Assembly (NCBI GenBank): GCA_019247845.1
Contig: JAFBAL010000029.1
Location: forward strand, 1,215-65,214
Length of the DNA stretch: 64,000 nt
From: Alphaproteobacteria bacterium
GTDB taxonomy: Bacteria; Pseudomonadota; Alphaproteobacteria; Micropepsales; Micropepsaceae
Reading direction: 5' to 3'
A program made the translations under genes and the position numbers. Of this stretch, positions 44,945 to 52,051 are shown one piece after another. Position 1 is the first letter of the stretch. Each line of letters begins with the position of its first letter. Below the pieces are notes generated by a model. The model searched no databases. It had not been told where the DNA came from and saw only the letters and a list, made by a program, of their open reading frames with translations.

Positions 44945-45895
44945 TTAGGCGGCGATTTCGGTGCGCCGCACAATACCAGTGAAGGCCGGGGGGGCAAGCG
45001 CCGAAATCCGGTCCGTGGCGGCGATGGCAGCGAACGCCACGGCAAGCCCGCCCAACAGGTCGACGACGTGGTGTCCACCCTGGATCGGGGTGGCGACCAG
45101 CACCACGGCGTTCAGGGCCGCGACCGGCCAGCGCAGGACTTTCACCTCGCGCGCATACCAGGCGACCAGCATGGCCAGCGCACCGTGGAAGGACGGGAAG
45201 CCGACCAGCCCCTTGGCGCTGGTCGGCGAGATCGGGCCGGGCCCGTTCGCGAGCAGGGCTTTGAGCTCCTGCGCATAGTGGCCGTCGAGCGCCAGATTCA
45301 GATGGGCCGCGACCTGGGGCGGCAGGTCGTAGACCGAGAAGGCGCCGAAGGAGGGGAAGGCCGTCCAGAAGAACACGGTCAGCATCGCGCCGATGGCGAT
45401 GGAGAGGCACAGGCGGTAGACGCGCTCGCATTGCCCGGTGAAGGACAGCGCGATGATCAGCATCGCGATCTGCGGCATGACCGACCCGTAGCAGAACTGC
45501 AGCACCGCATCGATGCGCGGATAGCCGGTCATGAACGCCATCAGCGCCGGCCAATCGATGCCGAGCATCCTGTCGGCCTTGGCGAGCAGCCAGTCGATGC
45601 GCGGGCCTGCAACGGTCAGCAGAAGATAGTTGAGCAGGCTGAACGCGGCCGAGAACACGACCAGGAACGCGGTGCCGAACAGCATGGTGCTGAGGCGCTC
45701 GTCGCGGCGATAGCGCGTGTAGAACACGCCGCCGGCGACCATCGCCGCCGACAGCAGCGCCAGCGTCGCATAGGCTTTGCCGTCGAGGTCGAAATGGAAC
45801 GCGGTTGCCCAGGCCGCGTCGACGATCACGATCGCGGCGGCGACGGCAAGAAGGATGCGCTGCAAAAGCGTCAGGGCCGCGGCTCTGGGGTCCAC
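44945..45895 (-). CDS. PAP2-superfamily membrane protein (PAP2_3 / Aur1-Ipt1-like)
   Basis: Multi-TM; FPSFH and [11 protein letters not shown] motifs. Confidence 0.82.
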
Positions 45896-45930: not shown

Positions 45931-46851
45931 TTAGTAGCCGCCGCTGTCGCCGACGCCGCCGCTGTTGAGCGCATTGCCGTCGAGCTCGACCTCGCGCGCC
46001 GTGTTGCGCTCCATGTCGGCGCAGACCCGCGTGCGGAAGGTGAAGAACATGTCGCCCGTGCCGTATTTGCGCAGATTCGTGCGCTCGGTGCAGTCGACCA
46101 CGCTCATCGCCGGCGCGCATTTCAGCATGCCGTCCTTGAAGTGGCGCACCGCCTCGCCCTCGCCGCATTGCAGGATCACGCCCTTGGAATAGAGGCCGGC
46201 CATGCCCTGGTCGGACTGGACCACGTCGCCCATCACGATCTTCAGGCGCGCGCCCGCGATGCAGCGCGCGACCTCGCCCTCATAGGACGACTCGATCCAG
46301 GTGTCGGCGGTCATATGCGTGGCCGGGAACTCGCGGCCGTCGGCGGCGATGCACACCGCATGGATCGACTTGACCACGGTCGCATCCTGCATCTCGCAAT
46401 GCCCGCGCGCCACAGCGACCGCGCCGATGTCGGAATTGTTGTGGATGTTGACGTATTCGTAGCTGCCGCCGCCATAGACGATGACCTGCGCGCCGGCTTG
46501 CGCATTCGCCTCGGCCATCGCCTGCGCGAAGGCGGCGACCTGCACGTTGATCTTGTTGATCACCACCACCTTGTTGATGTTGATGTTCTTGTTGAGGTTC
46601 AGGTTCTTGTTGATGTTGATGTTCTTGTTGATGATGATCGGATGATCGTGGCACCCGCCGCCGCCGCCGCCATAGCCGCCGTTCACGCTGCCGAAGCCGC
46701 CGCCGCTGCCCGCGACGCTGATGCCTGGCGCGCCGCCGCCGGTATAGAATCCGCCCGCAGAGGCCGGCGTGGCCGCGGCCGCCACCAGTGCCGCGCCCGC
46801 GAGCGCGCTAACCACAAACCTGAAAGAGATCGGCGACATGCTTGGCTCCAT
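45931..46851 (-). CDS. Secreted protein: Gly-rich linker, Asn-rich hexapeptide repeats, Cys-rich C-terminal domain
   Basis: Signal peptide ending ..AATPASA; GGGFG..GGGGGGC; INKNININKNLNLNKNININK; 8 Cys. Start may be 46851 or 46839. Confidence 0.8.
   Translation of the reverse strand: MEPSMSPISFRFVVSALAGAALVAAAATPASAGGFYTGGGAPGISVAGSGGGFGSVNGGYGGGGGGCHDHPIIINKNININKNLNLNKNININKVVVINKINVQVAAFAQAMAEANAQAGAQVIVYGGGSYEYVNIHNNSDIGAVAVARGHCEMQDATVVKSIHAVCIAADGREFPATHMTADTWIESSYEGEVARCIAGARLKIVMGDVVQSDQGMAGLYSKGVILQCGEGEAVRHFKDGMLKCAPAMSVVDCTERTNLRKYGTGDMFFTFRTRVCADMERNTAREVELDGNALNSGGVGDSGGY
46570..46632 (-). repeat. 3.5 tandem 18-bp units encoding N-(I/L)-N-(I/L)-N-K
   Basis: Plus strand reads CTTGTTGATGTTGATGTT / CTTGTTGAGGTTCAGGTT / CTTGTTGATGTTGATGTT / CTTGTTGAT. 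Confidence 0.9.
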
Positions 46852-47022
46852 GACTGCGTCATCCTAAACATGGCTCGCGCTTCCCAATGACGGGAAGTTG
46901 GACGAAGCCTTAATGACCGCGCCCGTCGCTTCACGATCCGTGCCACAGGATGCCTTGGTTTTGCCCTTGGACGTGCTCCAAACTGGCACATCCAAGCGAC
47001 TCGTACCCCAGGCAAACCGCCG

Positions 47023-47733
47023 ATGATCCCGATCTCGGACGACAATCCCGTCAGCCATACCCCCTTCGTGACCTGGCTCCTGGTCGCGGTCTGCGTGGCG
47101 GCCTATCTCTGGGAGCTGTCGCTCGGCGAGCGCGCCTTCGACGGCGCGCTGACGGTCCTGGGCTTCACCCCGGCCGGCTTCTTCGGCCGGGCCGAAGCGC
47201 CGTCGGAGCTGCTGGGCATCCCCGCCTTCGCCACCATCTTCATCTCGATGTTCCTGCATGGCGGCTTCCTGCATCTGGCCGGCAACATGCTCTATCTGTG
47301 GATATTCGGGAACAACATCGAAGAGGCGATGGGGCACTTCAAGTTCATCCTGTTCTATTTCGCGAGCGGGGTGGCCGCGGCCCTGACCATGGGCGCCGTC
47401 GATCCCAATTCGGCCGTGCCGATGGTCGGCGCTTCGGGCGCGATCTCGGGCGTGCTCGGCGCCTATATGCTGCTGTATCCGCGCGCGCGGGTGCACGTGA
47501 TCATCCCGCTCGGCATCATCTTCTATCCGCTCTGGGTGCGCGCGGTGTGGGTGGTCGGCATCTGGTTCGGGCTGCAGCTCTTGAGCGCGGCCTATACCGA
47601 CCCGTCCAAGCCCGGCACCGCCTTCTGGGCCCATGTCGGCGGCTTCATCGCCGGGCTGGTGCTCACCCCCGTCCTGAAATCGCGCGACGTGCGCTATTTC
47701 GGCCCCTATTTCCAGCGCGGACCCTGGTCATAA
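47023..47733 (+). CDS. Rhomboid family intramembrane serine protease
   Basis: SMFLHGG..HL.GNML.LW.FG.N.E, GASGAISG (Ser), AHVGGF (His). Confidence 0.95.
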   Translation: MIPISDDNPVSHTPFVTWLLVAVCVAAYLWELSLGERAFDGALTVLGFTPAGFFGRAEAPSELLGIPAFATIFISMFLHGGFLHLAGNMLYLWIFGNNIEEAMGHFKFILFYFASGVAAALTMGAVDPNSAVPMVGASGAISGVLGAYMLLYPRARVHVIIPLGIIFYPLWVRAVWVVGIWFGLQLLSAAYTDPSKPGTAFWAHVGGFIAGLVLTPVLKSRDVRYFGPYFQRGPWS

Positions 47734-47833: not shown

Positions 47834-48505
47834 ATGAAGCACAAGAACTCCCATCTCCTGGTCGGCTATTGGAGCCGCCTTCGCAACGGACGCGACGTTC
47901 CCGATCAGACCGACATCGATCCGCGCGCGATCAAGCGCATGCTGAGCCACGTCTTCATCCTCGACGCGGCCAATCCGGGACGGCCGATCTATCGCCTCGC
48001 CGGCACCGGGTTGTGCGAGCGCTTCGGCATGGAGCTCAAAGGCACCGGATTCCTTGCGCATTGGGAAGGCCAGTCGGGCATCGCGCTCGGCTCGCTGCTC
48101 AAGCAGGCCCAGAAGACGCGACAGCCGGTGTGCCTTTCGGCGATCGGGGCGACCGCGGATTGCGGCATGGTGGAGCTCGAGACCATCCTGGCGCCGATCA
48201 CCTTCAACGGCGGCGAGCCGATGCGCTTCCTGGGCCTGACGCAGGTGCTGAGCGACATGGCGCTGCTCGCCGGCCGCCCCATCGCCTTCCAGCGCCTGGT
48301 GGCCTCGGCCCTGGTGCGCGAGGACGAGCCGCTCGCCGCACCCGTCCATCTGGCGCCGCCTCCGCCGCCGGTGCAGGCGATGCGCAACCATCCCAAGGCG
48401 CCGCATCTGCGCCTGGTCGTGAACCAGGACAAACCCGCCGATGTCGAGGTCAATTCCGAAGAGGTCCTGCGCCGCATGGCGCAGCTGTTCAACGGCAACC
48501 AGTAG
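47834..48505 (+). CDS. Stand-alone PAS domain protein (PAS_5 / DUF1457-like)
   Basis: YWSRLR.GR..P...DIDP..I...L..VFILD, YRLAGT.LC..FG.ELKG. Confidence 0.85.
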   Translation: MKHKNSHLLVGYWSRLRNGRDVPDQTDIDPRAIKRMLSHVFILDAANPGRPIYRLAGTGLCERFGMELKGTGFLAHWEGQSGIALGSLLKQAQKTRQPVCLSAIGATADCGMVELETILAPITFNGGEPMRFLGLTQVLSDMALLAGRPIAFQRLVASALVREDEPLAAPVHLAPPPPPVQAMRNHPKAPHLRLVVNQDKPADVEVNSEEVLRRMAQLFNGNQ

Positions 48506-48538: not shown

Positions 48539-48895
48539 CTATTGCGGATCCTGCTGCGGCATCGGAGTTTCGCCGCGCTGCTGATCGTTCTTGTGGATCG
48601 GATTGTCCAGCGGGTCGGCGTGCATGACGTCGCGGTCGAACTGCTGCTCGTGGTCCTTGCGCTCGAGGAAGGGAACCTCGTACTTCTCGATCTTGGCGCG
48701 ATAGGCCTCGAACCGGGCCTCGTCGTCCGGCAGGCGCTTGTCGCAGCGGTCGGGCGGAAGGCCCGCCTGCTCCTGGCACCAGAGATCGAAGTTCATCGTC
48801 TTGACGTCGTAGCGTTCCGTCTGGGCGTGACTCGACGACACAACGGCGGGCAACGCGAAAAGCGCGGCGGCGAAGGCGAGCCTGAAGGATTTCAT
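48539..48895 (-). CDS. Exported hypothetical protein (about 118 aa)
   Basis: Signal peptide MKSFRLAFAAALFALPAVVSSSHA; WCQE..LP..RCD Cys pair. Confidence 0.7.
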   Translation of the reverse strand: MKSFRLAFAAALFALPAVVSSSHAQTERYDVKTMNFDLWCQEQAGLPPDRCDKRLPDDEARFEAYRAKIEKYEVPFLERKDHEQQFDRDVMHADPLDNPIHKNDQQRGETPMPQQDPQ

Positions 48896-48986
48896 ACCGT
48901 CCATAACGCCCAGCCCGGCAGCGGAGTTGCAGCCGCCAGCATATGGGCGAAGCCATGGCAAAGATAGCGGCATGGCGAAGATGGCG

Positions 48987-50636
48987 CTATTGCGCCGCCA
49001 CCCTGGCGTGATCCTCGGCAACTTTGACGAATTGCGGCGCAAGCGCGGGCCGTCCCAGGATCATGTCCGAGGCCTTCTCGGCGATCATGATCGTGGGCGC
49101 GTTGGTGTTGCCGCTGACCAGCGCCGGCATCACCGAGGCGTCGACGACGCGCAATCCTTCCAAACCGTGAACCTTCAATTGCGGATCGACGACACTTTCG
49201 CCATCCGTCCCCATCTTGGCGCTGCCGACCGGGTGATAGATCGTCTCGGCGGTCTTGCGGATGAAGGCGTCGATCTGCTCGTCCCTGGTGACGTGCGCGC
49301 CGGGCATCAGCTCGGGCCCGCGATAGGGATCGAACGAGGTCTGCGCGAACACCTCGCGCGCCAGCTTGACGCCCTCGCGCATGACGCGGCGGTCCTCCTC
49401 GGCCTCCAGATAGTTCGGCTGGATCAGCGGCGCCACCAGCGGGTCGGCCGATTTGAGCGAGATGTAGCCGCGGCTCTGCGGCCGCAGCTGGCAGACATGG
49501 GTCATGAAGCCGTGCCGGTCGCCCTTGACGCGCGTGTGGTCGTACATCAGCGCGGTGATGAAATGGAACTGCAGGTCGGGCGTTTCGAGATCGGGGCGGC
49601 TCTTCAGGAAGGCGCCGGACTCGAGGCCCTGGCCGGTGGCAAGGCCCGTGCCGAACAGCATGTATTGCAGGCCGGTCTTGAGCGCGTTCAGCGGCTTGGA
49701 CTGGCTGAACAGCGTGATCGGCTGGGTGCATTCGTACTGGATCGAGCAGTCGAGATGGTCCTGCAGGTTCTTGCCCACGCCCTTCATGTCGGCCACGACG
49801 GGGATGTCGAAGCGGTTCAGCACCTCGCCGTCGCCGACGCCCGACAGCATCAGCACCTGCGGCGTGTTCACAGCGCCGCCGCACAAGAGCACCTCGCGCG
49901 TCGCGCGGACCTTGTGCGACTGTTTCCTCTGCACGAACTCGACGCCGACCGCGCGCTTGCCCTCGAACAGGATGCGCGCGACGTGGGCGTGGGATTCGAT
50001 CGTCAGGTTCGGCCGCTTCACCGCGTCGTGCAGATAGGCCTTGGCAGCGCTCCAGCGCTTGCCCTCGTGGATGGTGAGCTGGTAGGGCCCGAAGCCTTCC
50101 TGCTGGGCGCCGTTGAAGTCGTCCGTATACGGATGTCCGGCTTCCTGGCCCGCCTGCACGAAGCTGCGGAACAGCGGATTGACGGAGCGCCCGCTCGACA
50201 CGCGCAAGGGCCCGTCGTGCCCGTGAAAATCGTCGCCGCCCTTCTCGTTGCCTTCCGCGCGCTTGAAATAGGGCAGCACGTCGGCGAACGACCAGCCGTC
50301 GCAACCCATCTGCCGCCAGCCGTCATAGTCGCGCGCATGGCCGCGGATATAGATCATGCCGTTGATCGAGGACGAGCCGCCCCAGCCCCGGCCGCGCGGC
50401 CAATAGAGCTTGCGGCCGTTCAGGTGCAGCTGACCTTCGGTCTCGTAGTACCAGTTGTACGGATTGGGCTTGCCGAGAAGGGCGGGGATGCCCGCCGGCA
50501 TGTGGATCATCGCCGACTTGTCGCGGCCGCCCGCCTCGATCAGCAGCACCTCGACGTTCGGATCGGCCGAGAGGCGGCTTGCCAGGACGCAGCCCGCGCT
50601 GCCGGCGCCGACGACGATATAGTCATAGGCCTTCAT
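48987..50636 (-). CDS. GMC oxidoreductase (choline dehydrogenase-like)
   Basis: YDYIVVGAGSAG, PRGRGWGGSSSINGMIY, NLQDH, TIYHPVG, GNTNAPTIMIAEK. Substrate not assignable from motifs. Confidence 0.92.
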   Translation of the reverse strand: MKAYDYIVVGAGSAGCVLASRLSADPNVEVLLIEAGGRDKSAMIHMPAGIPALLGKPNPYNWYYETEGQLHLNGRKLYWPRGRGWGGSSSINGMIYIRGHARDYDGWRQMGCDGWSFADVLPYFKRAEGNEKGGDDFHGHDGPLRVSSGRSVNPLFRSFVQAGQEAGHPYTDDFNGAQQEGFGPYQLTIHEGKRWSAAKAYLHDAVKRPNLTIESHAHVARILFEGKRAVGVEFVQRKQSHKVRATREVLLCGGAVNTPQVLMLSGVGDGEVLNRFDIPVVADMKGVGKNLQDHLDCSIQYECTQPITLFSQSKPLNALKTGLQYMLFGTGLATGQGLESGAFLKSRPDLETPDLQFHFITALMYDHTRVKGDRHGFMTHVCQLRPQSRGYISLKSADPLVAPLIQPNYLEAEEDRRVMREGVKLAREVFAQTSFDPYRGPELMPGAHVTRDEQIDAFIRKTAETIYHPVGSAKMGTDGESVVDPQLKVHGLEGLRVVDASVMPALVSGNTNAPTIMIAEKASDMILGRPALAPQFVKVAEDHARVAAQ

Positions 50637-51403: not shown

Positions 51404-52051
51404 ATGAAGGATATCGAGCCCGTGATTGCCAAAGCCAAGGCGGAGCGCCGGCGCTTCCGGCGCGTGCGCGTCGATCTGACCGGCCGGCTGTTCGTTCCGG
51501 CGGATTCGCGCGAGTGCCACTGCAAGGTCGTCGACCTGTCGCCGGGCGGCGCCTCGATCGAATGCGACCTGGTCTTGGCTCAGGGCACGCAGATCGTGCT
51601 GTACGTCGACGGCTTCGGCCGCCTCGAGGGCACGCTGGCCCGCGTCGAGGGGCCCGACTTCGGCGTGCGCTTCAACTGCACGCCCGCCAAGCGCGAGCGT
51701 ATCGCCGAGCAGCTCATCCTGTTCATGAACCGCGCGCTCATCGACGAGACCGAGATGCGCCGCCACGACCGCACGCCCACCAAGGGCATCGCGCGCTTCA
51801 CCCGCGCCGACGGCCAGTTCGTCGCCTGCGAGGTGATGGACCTGTCGGTCAGCGGCGTCTCGCTCAAGACCGACGTGCGCCCGCCGATCGGCGAGTTCGT
51901 GCTGATCGGCCAGATGGCCGGCCGCGTCGCGCGTCATCACGAGCACGGCATCGGCATCGAGTTCGTCGGCGGCACGCCGGTGACGGCGGACCGGCTGCAG
52001 CCGAAGCCGGCGACCGACCGCATCGCGTCCAAGGCCGCGACGGGGCGGTAA
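51404..52051 (+). CDS. Tandem PilZ domain protein
   Basis: Two RxxxR / DxSxxG pairs: RRFRRV..DLSPGG and RRHDR..DLSVSG. Confidence 0.92.
   Translation: MKDIEPVIAKAKAERRRFRRVRVDLTGRLFVPADSRECHCKVVDLSPGGASIECDLVLAQGTQIVLYVDGFGRLEGTLARVEGPDFGVRFNCTPAKRERIAEQLILFMNRALIDETEMRRHDRTPTKGIARFTRADGQFVACEVMDLSVSGVSLKTDVRPPIGEFVLIGQMAGRVARHHEHGIGIEFVGGTPVTADRLQPKPATDRIASKAATGR

Follow-up and report, generated by a model that had tools for sequence, protein, structure and literature searches.

The gene on the minus strand at positions 45931 to 46851 of a 64,000-nucleotide stretch of contig JAFBAL010000029.1 (assembly GCA_019247845.1; hereafter, the window), which derives from an alphaproteobacterium of the family Micropepsaceae, almost certainly encodes a homolog of HfaE, a holdfast anchor protein known from Caulobacterales. 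The best explanation of the evidence presented here is that it represents the HfaE ortholog of a Rhizomicrobium-like (Micropepsales) bacterium, which we regard as probable, and a holdfast-anchoring role in this organism also appears reasonably likely. The original prediction for this locus had described an uncharacterised secreted protein with an amyloid-like Asn/Ile/Lys repeat and a Cys-rich cap domain. The open reading frame (ORF) of 306 amino acids (aa) is present as first described; the word uncharacterised no longer applies, as the protein carries the Pfam family PF26654 (DUF8217), which we identify with HfaE. Since experimentally characterised members of this family exist, the gene does not represent a new kind of system or fibre. 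The link between DUF8217 and HfaE is itself new, being found neither in the Pfam name nor in any NCBIfam model, and our literature search on PF26654, DUF8217 and PF07310/DUF1457/PAS_5 returned nothing relevant.

The PF26654 assignment comes from precomputed annotation (PF26654.1) of the database entry P0001, which is 100% identical to the window protein, and of all 120 homologs listed, and the gene tables give the name of this family as DUF8217. Our own scans of Pfam-A and NCBIfam, for which the Pfam copy lacked PF26654, retrieved no match for the protein at E-values up to 10 and nothing useful for its C-terminal domain or for ten distant homologs. The homolog search recovered more than 443 relatives, all of about 290-390 aa. 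A phmmer search with the C-terminal domain alone, which the original prediction had proposed together with a comparison of repeat numbers (3-18 among the homologs), proved productive: it retrieved 185 clusters at E ≤ 1e-3 among 1.84 billion cluster representatives, including the clade that bears the published HfaE motifs, and reached the Caulobacterales DUF8217 members at 1e-17 to 1e-8. These second-tier matches (30-37% identity), all annotated as "hypothetical protein", came from Hyphomonadaceae, from Euryhalocaulis, Henriciella and Maricaulis and, among Caulobacteraceae, from Brevundimonas and Asticcacaulis; they resemble the window protein in length and architecture, with a different N-terminus that is Pro-rich, contains CC or carries VPGVxVGxP repeats. 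When the alignment of the window clade (A2) was compared with that of the Caulobacterales DUF8217 proteins (A4) using hhalign, the two profiles matched with a probability of ~100% (E 3.4e-38, 152 columns, 32% identity), and three motifs fell into register.

The consensus of the A4 alignment reads exactly ...PHPASQV...CNERSLLRR...DGGVG, and the motifs PHPASQV, CNERSLLR and DGGVG have been reported as conserved in all HfaE proteins analysed (Chepkwony, Hardy & Brun, 10.1101/2022.07.20.500906). In the window clade, the same columns read FPA[ST]HM, in which P, A and S/T are kept, CTERTNLR, with five of eight residues identical, and GGVG, with four of five. The gap between the canonical and the diverged forms is filled by lineages of intermediate type, P0134 and P0140 among them. 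It is the agreement of the A4 consensus with the published motifs, in combination with the A2-A4 profile match and these bridging lineages, that leads us to identify DUF8217 with HfaE. The studied HfaE proteins are CC_2639 / CCNA_02722 of Caulobacter crescentus and Hbal_0649 of Hirschia baltica. The gene CCNA_02722 was named hfaE for its holdfast-shedding phenotype, and its product was described as hypothetical, bearing a signal peptide and belonging to no known family (Hershey et al., PMC6372794). In both species, HfaE strengthens the link between the holdfast polysaccharide and the envelope, and the mutants shed their holdfast under shear (10.1101/2022.07.20.500906; PMC6372794). It has also been reported that HfaE co-localises with the holdfast at the pole, that this localisation needs HfaA, HfaB, HfaD and the HfsDAB export complex, and that HfaE forms heat/sodium dodecyl sulfate (SDS)-resistant multimers on its own, independently of HfaA/HfaD (10.1101/2022.07.20.500906). 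The C-terminal half of the protein is conserved and the N-terminus divergent, the C. crescentus protein has 10 Cys residues, and the gene directly follows the hfa locus in H. baltica and is eight genes away from it in C. crescentus (10.1101/2022.07.20.500906).

Gene-neighborhood analysis further supports the assignment. A scan of one genome per species yielded 146 genomes with a relative, from which 80 loci were kept; all of these are metagenome-assembled and labelled as Rhizomicrobium, a member of Micropepsales, or as unclassified Alpha-/Proteobacteria, apart from two that carry the labels Rhizobium and Hyphomicrobiales. The window itself has its match in a root metagenome. The common order in these Rhizomicrobium-like loci comprises a GMC oxidoreductase, a small ORF, a PAS_5 gene, a rhomboid protease gene, the target gene in divergent orientation, a variable stretch and sucC, with the rhomboid gene found in 73, the PAS_5 gene in 74 and a PAP2-family gene in 14 of the 80 loci. 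The PAS_5 gene is also the divergent neighbor of the DUF8217 gene in nine of ten non-Rhizomicrobium contexts, including Hyphomonadaceae with canonical motifs, the exception being Brevundimonas. In six of these ten contexts (L084, L088, L089, L091, L092 and L095), hfaA-hfaB(-hfaD), with hfaB encoding a CsgG-family protein, lies 1.6-3.4 kb from the DUF8217 gene, which fits the published hfaE position; in Brevundimonas, the DUF8217 gene is one gene away from hfaD. Genes for PilZ, PhoH and Hexapep proteins also recur near DUF8217 genes. The locus L092 encodes P0140, a 489-aa protein with the hexapeptide array of the window protein (hexad type), and carries hfaD<-hfaB<-hfaA 2.2 kb downstream; upstream, it displays the synteny of the window, with rhomboid, PAS_5 and PilZ proteins respectively 57%, 52% and 54% identical to those of the window. 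The gene neighborhood common to these contexts, with its divergent PAS_5 gene, speaks for the window gene as a positional ortholog of the Caulobacterales hfaE rather than an unrelated paralog.

The remaining hfa genes were also found in the lineage. Using HfaB of L092 as the query, we retrieved "holdfast anchoring protein HfaB [Rhizomicrobium sp.]"; on contig_37614, hfaA-hfaB-hfaD (L093) lies ~146 kb from an ortholog of the target (L042), and the assembly DASZBL01 likewise contains both hfaA-hfaB-hfaD (L094) and a target ortholog (L058). Judged by sequence and gene order, the occurrence of HfaE, HfaA, HfaB and HfaD homologs outside Caulobacterales, in Micropepsales, is a new observation and contrary to the published distribution (10.1101/2022.07.20.500906); our literature search found nothing on Rhizomicrobium and holdfast, nor on Micropepsales in a 2025 phylogenomics paper on Caulobacterales.

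As a separate observation, HfaD is 176-205 aa long in L092 (13695-14225), L093 (7055-7612) and L094 (6986-7603), and 408-424 aa long in Hyphomonadaceae and Brevundimonas (L084, L089, L091 and L095). The short form in the hexad-clade and Rhizomicrobium lineages therefore indicates that the anchor operon has been remodelled there.

The likeness to the studied HfaE proteins extends over the whole layout of the protein: both have a signal peptide and ~300 aa, of which the N-terminal half diverges and the Cys-rich C-terminal half is conserved, with the three motifs, here in altered form, at equal aligned positions and a shared Pfam family, and to this are added a relative (L092) that adjoins hfaA-hfaB-hfaD and a divergent PAS_5 neighbor, as in the Hyphomonadaceae genes. 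The differences lie in the host, which belongs to Micropepsales and not to Caulobacterales, in the diverged motifs, in the number of Cys residues (8 versus 10 in C. crescentus), and in the N-terminus, where a periodic x[IV]x[IV]xK array stands in place of the Cys/Pro-rich or VPGVxV sequences of Caulobacterales. Furthermore, the window gene is unlinked from hfaABD, has a rhomboid gene inserted alongside, and has a function that is here read from sequence. HfaA and HfaD are likewise secreted parts of the anchor complex, exported via the CsgG-like HfaB; these two proteins share no sequence similarity with the window protein and carry curlin-like A(I/V)GN and N/Q-rich repeats.

Residues are numbered throughout in the 306-aa frame, that is, the longest ORF, with its ATG at 46851. 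The true start of the DUF8217 gene is likely M5 (ATG at 46839), because GGAG lies 6 nt 5' of this codon, homologs begin at M5 and the database copy P0001 has 302 aa; the coding sequence of the HfaE-family protein would accordingly span 45931..46839 (302 aa, minus strand, as for all features of this protein). The elements that had been read from the sequence, namely, a signal peptide, a Gly-rich linker, the Asn/Ile/Lys repeat, an Ala/Gln segment and an NIHNN patch, are all present, and seven of the eight Cys residues do fall in the C-terminal part (positions 152, 167, 197, 229, 245, 254 and 277), Cys67 being the one outside. By a heuristic reading, the N-terminus MSPISFRFVVSALAGAALVAAAATPASA, followed by GG, has n, h and c regions and an AxA site, and it is kept across the homolog alignments; this putative signal peptide (residues 5-32, 46756..46839) includes a helix at residues 11-27 in the AlphaFold2 (AF2) model. 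It is followed by a Gly-rich linker (residues 33-66, 46654..46755) that is of variable length in the alignments and of low predicted local distance difference test (pLDDT) score, and by Cys67 (46651..46653), which directly precedes the repeat and is 97% conserved in the hexad clade; Caulobacterales proteins show C or CC at this place, a Cys thus standing ahead of the repeat position in both clades. The repeat consists of five tandem hexapeptides, x-[IVL]-x-[IVL]-x-K (residues 71-100, 46552..46641). Next come INVQV and an alternating Ala/Gln segment, AAFAQAMAEANAQAGAQ (residues 101-122, 46486..46551), with a weak AF2 helix at 105-116; within it, the Ala/Gln segment proper comprises residues 106-122, in which Ala at alternate positions is conserved family-wide. 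A beta-prone linker, VIVYGGGSYEYVNIHNNSDIGAVAVARGH (residues 123-151, 46399..46485, from alignments and AF2), contains the NIHNN patch (134-138) and leads into the HfaE/DUF8217 core domain (residues 152-283, 46003..46398). In the profile alignment, FPATHMT (residues 175-181, 46309..46329) is the diverged counterpart of HfaE motif 1 (PHPASQV) and CTERTNLR (residues 254-261, 46069..46092) that of motif 2 (CNERSLLR); GGVG (residues 298-301, 45949..45960), near the C-terminus, corresponds to motif 3 (DGGVG) and is invariant in the family.

AF2, run with a 115-sequence alignment, modelled residues ~150-283 with confidence as an all-beta domain (block pLDDT 82-96), and the domain was again confident in the model of P0078, a homolog with 18 hexads, with a pLDDT of ~90 in both independent models. 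The monomer modelling that had been suggested at the outset thus gave a clear answer for this domain and returned the repeat without structure. Alignments of 24 and 115 sequences exhibited strong conservation of the C-terminal ~150 residues, where seven Cys and many charged residues are invariant. Cys 167, 197, 229, 245 and 254 are conserved superfamily-wide, and C152 and C277 form a co-varying pair that flanks the domain; the odd Cys count in the core suggests that Cys67 is bonded to the domain or to another chain. Foldseek searches with the full-length models, disordered parts included, found no match at E ≤ 1e-3 and low TM-scores for both models against PDB and one against BFVD, and a search of PDB sequences with the family profile returned nothing significant, its top match (E 0.12) being a 165-aa N-acetyltransferase over the repeat region. 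The C-terminal domain is therefore without a detectable solved relative. A single-sequence PDB match to hepsin, a serine protease of the chymotrypsin fold (E 6e-4), was judged to be due to chance, as the catalytic His/Asp/Ser residues are neither covered nor conserved, and the match disappeared with the family profile and was absent from Foldseek. Separately, the 2186-aa protein P0260, with 153 Cys, has 12 separate stretches that match residues 89-129 of the C-terminal-domain query, counted within that query (E 4.5e-8), which may be a coincidence of repeated Cys motifs or may reveal a distant relative of the domain.

The five hexads read, in order, PIIINK, NININK, NLNLNK, NININK and VVVINK, with Lys at 76, 82, 88, 94 and 100. 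The 18-bp tandem units noted in the DNA were recovered by Tandem Repeats Finder at 46570-46638 (3.8 copies, inside the hexad stretch), together with 6- and 36-bp sub-/super-periods. Five tandem x[IVL]x[IVL]xK hexads contrast with a longest run of two in 200,000 shuffles of either the whole protein or residues 60-125, and the power spectrum of hydrophobicity has its top peak at period 6 and the next at period 2. The description of the product as a secreted, Cys-rich protein with a truly periodic, beta-prone repeat was right. The GC content is 66.8% in the window and 44% in the repeat, where all codons end in G or C (third-position GC, GC3 = 100%), and the AT-richness of the repeat is therefore a product of amino-acid selection rather than of DNA that is foreign or prone to slippage. 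Each of the 115 aligned homologs has the array, in 3-18 copies (median 8), with I/V at position 2, I at position 4 in 84%, K at position 6 in 96%, and N/P/T/Y/D at positions 1, 3 and 5. In long arrays the unit is the 12-mer PVTINK-NINIYK, and copy numbers tend to differ by two hexads (12 residues) at a time. In the alignments of 24 and 115 sequences, Cys67 hardly varies, and neither does the last hexad (xIVINK). In pairwise comparisons with seven orthologs, the ratio of nonsynonymous to synonymous rates (dN/dS) was 0.04-0.66 in the repeat and 0.17-0.41 in the C-terminal domain; the proportion of nonsynonymous differences (pN) in the repeat fell as low as 0.03, with synonymous proportions (pS) of 0.09-0.52. 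Such a clade-specific, strictly periodic hexapeptide module at the N-terminus is new in the HfaE family.

Strict hydrophobic/polar alternation, the recurrence of residues every six positions and the strong purifying selection lead us to read the repeat as a beta-forming module, and an identical residue every six positions is what in-register stacking of repeat units would require. That it is an ordered, self-associating beta module and not a spacer remains tentative, with a probability that we would put somewhat short of even. The chief alternative, which we hold to be unlikely yet serious, accepts the HfaE-family membership and takes the array for an extended or disordered spacer of variable length that sets the reach of the C-terminal domain, with no ordered beta assembly; what is left beyond these two goes, roughly, to binding or other roles of the repeat. 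Several observations weigh against order, and most of them also fit the spacer. In the AF2 monomer of the window protein, the repeat is unstructured (pLDDT 31-43), and P0078, chosen because a solenoid should be easier to recognise at 18 hexads, yielded none (79-sequence alignment; repeat pLDDT 47-68, no DSSP secondary structure). The copy number varies six-fold among orthologs, as a spacer may. The equivalent region of the Caulobacterales proteins consists of other low-complexity sequence (Pro-rich, CC-rich or VPGVxV), so that the exact sequence may not matter. The Lys ladder would be charged unless Lys is solvent-exposed or neutralised by an anionic partner. Finally, the predicted aggregation segments of HfaE sit in conserved regions and not in the divergent N-terminus (10.1101/2022.07.20.500906). 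A spacer, on the other hand, would need neither Ile at position 4 nor Lys at position 6 at the observed frequencies, nor the low pN relative to pS, and the alternation of hydrophobic and polar residues is typical of beta strands and not of linkers. Monomer AF2 is known to be uninformative for segments that fold on oligomerisation only. As far as the models go, the repeat is not a self-sufficient monomeric fold, and this neither proves disorder nor excludes folding upon assembly.

A stronger version of the ordered module, in which the x[IV]x[IV]xK array constitutes an undescribed minimal self-stacking beta module that polymerises HfaE into an SDS-resistant anchor fibre in Micropepsales and related lineages, strikes us as rather improbable when all its parts are taken jointly. 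In this version, an Asn ladder would form one face and an Ile core with a Lys edge the other, in rungs of 6 or 12 residues, the copy number (3-18) would tune the length of the fibre or anchor, and Cys67 would lock the register. Were it true, the anchor system of hfaA, B, D and E would predate or extend beyond Caulobacterales and would be wired to a regulatory pair of MopJ-like PAS_5 and PilZ proteins.

The role of the protein was weighed separately from the state of its repeat. The HfaE relationship could reflect ancestry and not function, the DUF8217 protein having diverged to a holdfast-independent role in the envelope of Micropepsales, for example, as a surface or periplasmic protein that would be controlled by its PAS_5, PilZ and rhomboid neighbors; we consider this improbable. 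In its favour, and to the detriment of the holdfast-anchor interpretation, a search of the 64-kb window and of the 6-kb flanks of the 80 Rhizomicrobium-like orthologs found neither hfaA, hfaB nor hfaD, and the tightest neighbors are PAS_5 (74 of 80 loci; nine of the ten other contexts), rhomboid (73 of 80) and PilZ, not hfa genes. All three HfaE motifs appear diverged in the window protein (FPATHMT, CTERTNLR and GGVG), and the connection to CC_2639 and Hbal_0649, as drawn here, runs through published motifs, synteny and a shared Pfam family and not through direct alignment. The search for RNA runs returned none, and the gene is known here from its sequence alone. HfaE, like HfaA, has been stated to be confined to Caulobacterales (10.1101/2022.07.20.500906), and to assume a holdfast role in Micropepsales is therefore to extrapolate. 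On the other side, the lineage retains an intact hfaA-hfaB-hfaD operon, a hexad-type homolog with the same upstream synteny lies 2.2 kb from hfaABD in L092, and the PAS_5 pairing is common to the HfaE genes of Hyphomonadaceae with canonical motifs. Since hfaABD occurs elsewhere in the lineage and the hfaE of C. crescentus itself stands eight genes from the hfa operon (10.1101/2022.07.20.500906), the local lack of linkage is uninformative.

The initial idea of a stand-alone amyloid subunit of the curli or Fap kind, belonging to no known system, with the N/I/K repeat as its cross-beta core and the Cys-rich domain as a cap, is now very unlikely and largely refuted by the membership in a known family. 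It drew on the polar/hydrophobic alternation with rows of Asn, to which may be added a rough AGGRESCAN-type profile that marks two segments at the repeat edges, residues 70-77 and 92-111. A further point, and no more than a lead, is the resemblance of VVVINK, PIIINK and the homologous NINIYK to the steric-zipper hexapeptides of tau, VQIINK (PHF6*) and VQIVYK (PHF6), which share the ending I-[IV]-[NY]-K; the likeness is local, with no homology, the hydrophobic register differs in most hexads, and the window protein has a tandem array. CsgA and FapC are secreted proteins with imperfect tandem repeats and rows of Asn/Gln, and the SDS resistance of the HfaE family is amyloid-like; there is no homology, however, the repeat is of 6 or 12 residues here and of about 22 in CsgA, and a large folded Cys-rich domain dominates the window protein. 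Searches gave no Curlin_rpt, Fap or other Pfam/NCBIfam match, and five hexads (30 residues) are short for a fibre core. Most of the family, moreover, lacks the N/I/K repeat and has the conserved C-terminal domain, which is therefore the family core and not a cap. Nothing shows the repeat to be an amyloid core, given its lack of structure in the AF2 monomer and the placement of the published aggregation segments in conserved regions. The adhesin or amyloid-like character survives in so far as HfaE is reported to be an SDS-resistant multimer and an anchor protein; kinship to CsgA, FapC or S-layer proteins does not, in the absence of a Pfam/NCBIfam match. In the same way, it holds for the window that no csg/fap-like export genes are adjacent, as tblastn found no CsgG-like gene in the 64 kb and neither csgBEFG nor fap genes occur there, while the CsgG-like HfaB, with HfaA and HfaD, is encoded 2.2 kb from the L092 homolog and elsewhere in Rhizomicrobium.

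A left-handed beta-helix (LbH) of three hexapeptides per turn, probably trimeric, as in the hexapeptide-repeat acyltransferases, can be set aside as scarcely credible: the six-residue period (I-N-K-N-I-N), in which an aliphatic residue always takes the same place, loosely fits [LIV]-[GAED]-x2-[STAV]-x, and the N-acetyltransferase over the repeat was the sole near-match of the family profile in PDB, but its E of 0.12 is not significant, the Pfam Hexapep models gave no match even at E up to 10, AF2 readily predicts LbH domains and predicts none here, the copy-number steps favour two hexads (12 residues) and not three, and five hexads make less than two turns.

Returning to HfaE as the preferred identity, we propose that the protein would be exported by Sec, after which its C-terminal all-beta domain of ~135 residues would be locked by disulfides. 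The eight Cys may be apportioned as five in the core, the flanking pair and Cys67, the last probably linking the beginning of the repeat with the domain or bonding another chain. The C-terminal domain would serve as the conserved functional core, docking at the outer membrane into the HfaA/HfaD anchor. In the hexad array, Ile/Val occupies positions 2 and 4 and Lys position 6, with Asn on the opposite face; this array may be a lineage-specific replacement of the Cys/Pro-rich N-terminus of the Caulobacterales HfaE and could act as a beta-strand-forming module of tunable length that takes on order only upon self-association or upon binding a partner, candidates for which are other anchor proteins, polysaccharide and lipopolysaccharide. 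In this manner, the array would add to the SDS-resistant multimer.

With this assignment, DUF8217 proteins annotated as hypothetical in at least 146 Rhizomicrobium-like soil/root genomes and in all sampled Caulobacterales families can be named HfaE-family holdfast anchor proteins, and the HfaE, HfaA, HfaB and HfaD homologs in Micropepsales correct the statement that confined them to Caulobacterales. This suggests that polar adhesion of the holdfast type operates in abundant root- and peat-associated Alphaproteobacteria. The periodic, length-variable array also offers a clean natural variant for dissecting whether the HfaE N-terminus drives multimerisation or acts as a spacer, and the PAS_5 (MopJ-like) and PilZ neighbors provide a lead on the coupling of anchor production to cell-cycle or cyclic di-GMP (c-di-GMP) signalling.

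Among these neighbors, the gene at 47834..48505 (plus strand) encodes a single-domain PAS protein with PAS_5 (PF07310), the divergent partner of DUF8217 genes according to gene tables and synteny (also in L081-L092). The protein is distantly MopJ-like: against the NCBIfam model NF051868 for MopJ, a regulator of motility and cell cycle in Caulobacter, it scored E 2.6e-11, far below the family cutoff. This widely conserved PAS_5 (MopJ-like) partner gene of hfaE is new, and no mention of a PAS_5-hfaE pairing was found in the literature searched. A PilZ-domain protein (51404..52051, plus strand) recurs across orders in the DUF8217 neighborhood, with 38-54% identity to the PilZ proteins encoded beside PAS_5 in Euryhalocaulis, Maricaulis, Henriciella and L092, and hints at a c-di-GMP input into this conserved neighborhood.

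A rhomboid-family intramembrane protease (47023..47733, plus strand) is encoded divergently from the target, between it and PAS_5. This gene was rejected as a universal functional partner, since it adjoins the target in the hexad clade only, and the Caulobacterales contexts lack it beside DUF8217. Two rhomboid paralogs can be told apart: the first is divergent from the hfaE-like gene (hexad clade only), the second from hfaA; besides the window copy, rhomboid genes were located in L092 (9103-9813 and 16645-17370), L093 (4133-4840), L094 (4096-4809) and L095 (16787-17458). The copy on the hfaA side is accompanied by DsbA and DUF4389 genes in Micropepsales-like loci and stands alone in Brevundimonas. 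That rhomboid and DsbA genes recur next to those that encode secreted, Cys-rich anchor proteins may be a sign of processing or oxidative folding.

On the other side, 35 bp downstream of the target and on the same strand, lies a gene for a PAP2_3 family membrane protein (44945..45895, minus strand). It was discarded as an operon partner, being found at this position in 14 of the 80 loci as a variable insertion between the target and sucC. The scan for sigma-70 promoters and terminators detected no promoter-like site in the intergenic region, and two terminator-like sites that were in no excess over shuffles. The minus strand carries TGGCAC at 46940-46945, ~100 nt before the start, with GGATC-GTGA after it; this looks like a sigma-54 -24 element, but the -12 element (TTGC) is poor. 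Finally, the small ORF at 48539-49042 (minus strand; conserved part ~48599-48838), which belongs to no Pfam or NCBIfam family and has an apparent internal start resembling a signal peptide, MKSFRLAFAAALFALPAVVSSSHAQ, was found between PAS_5 and the GMC oxidoreductase in 70 of the 80 loci and in L092 (orf106).

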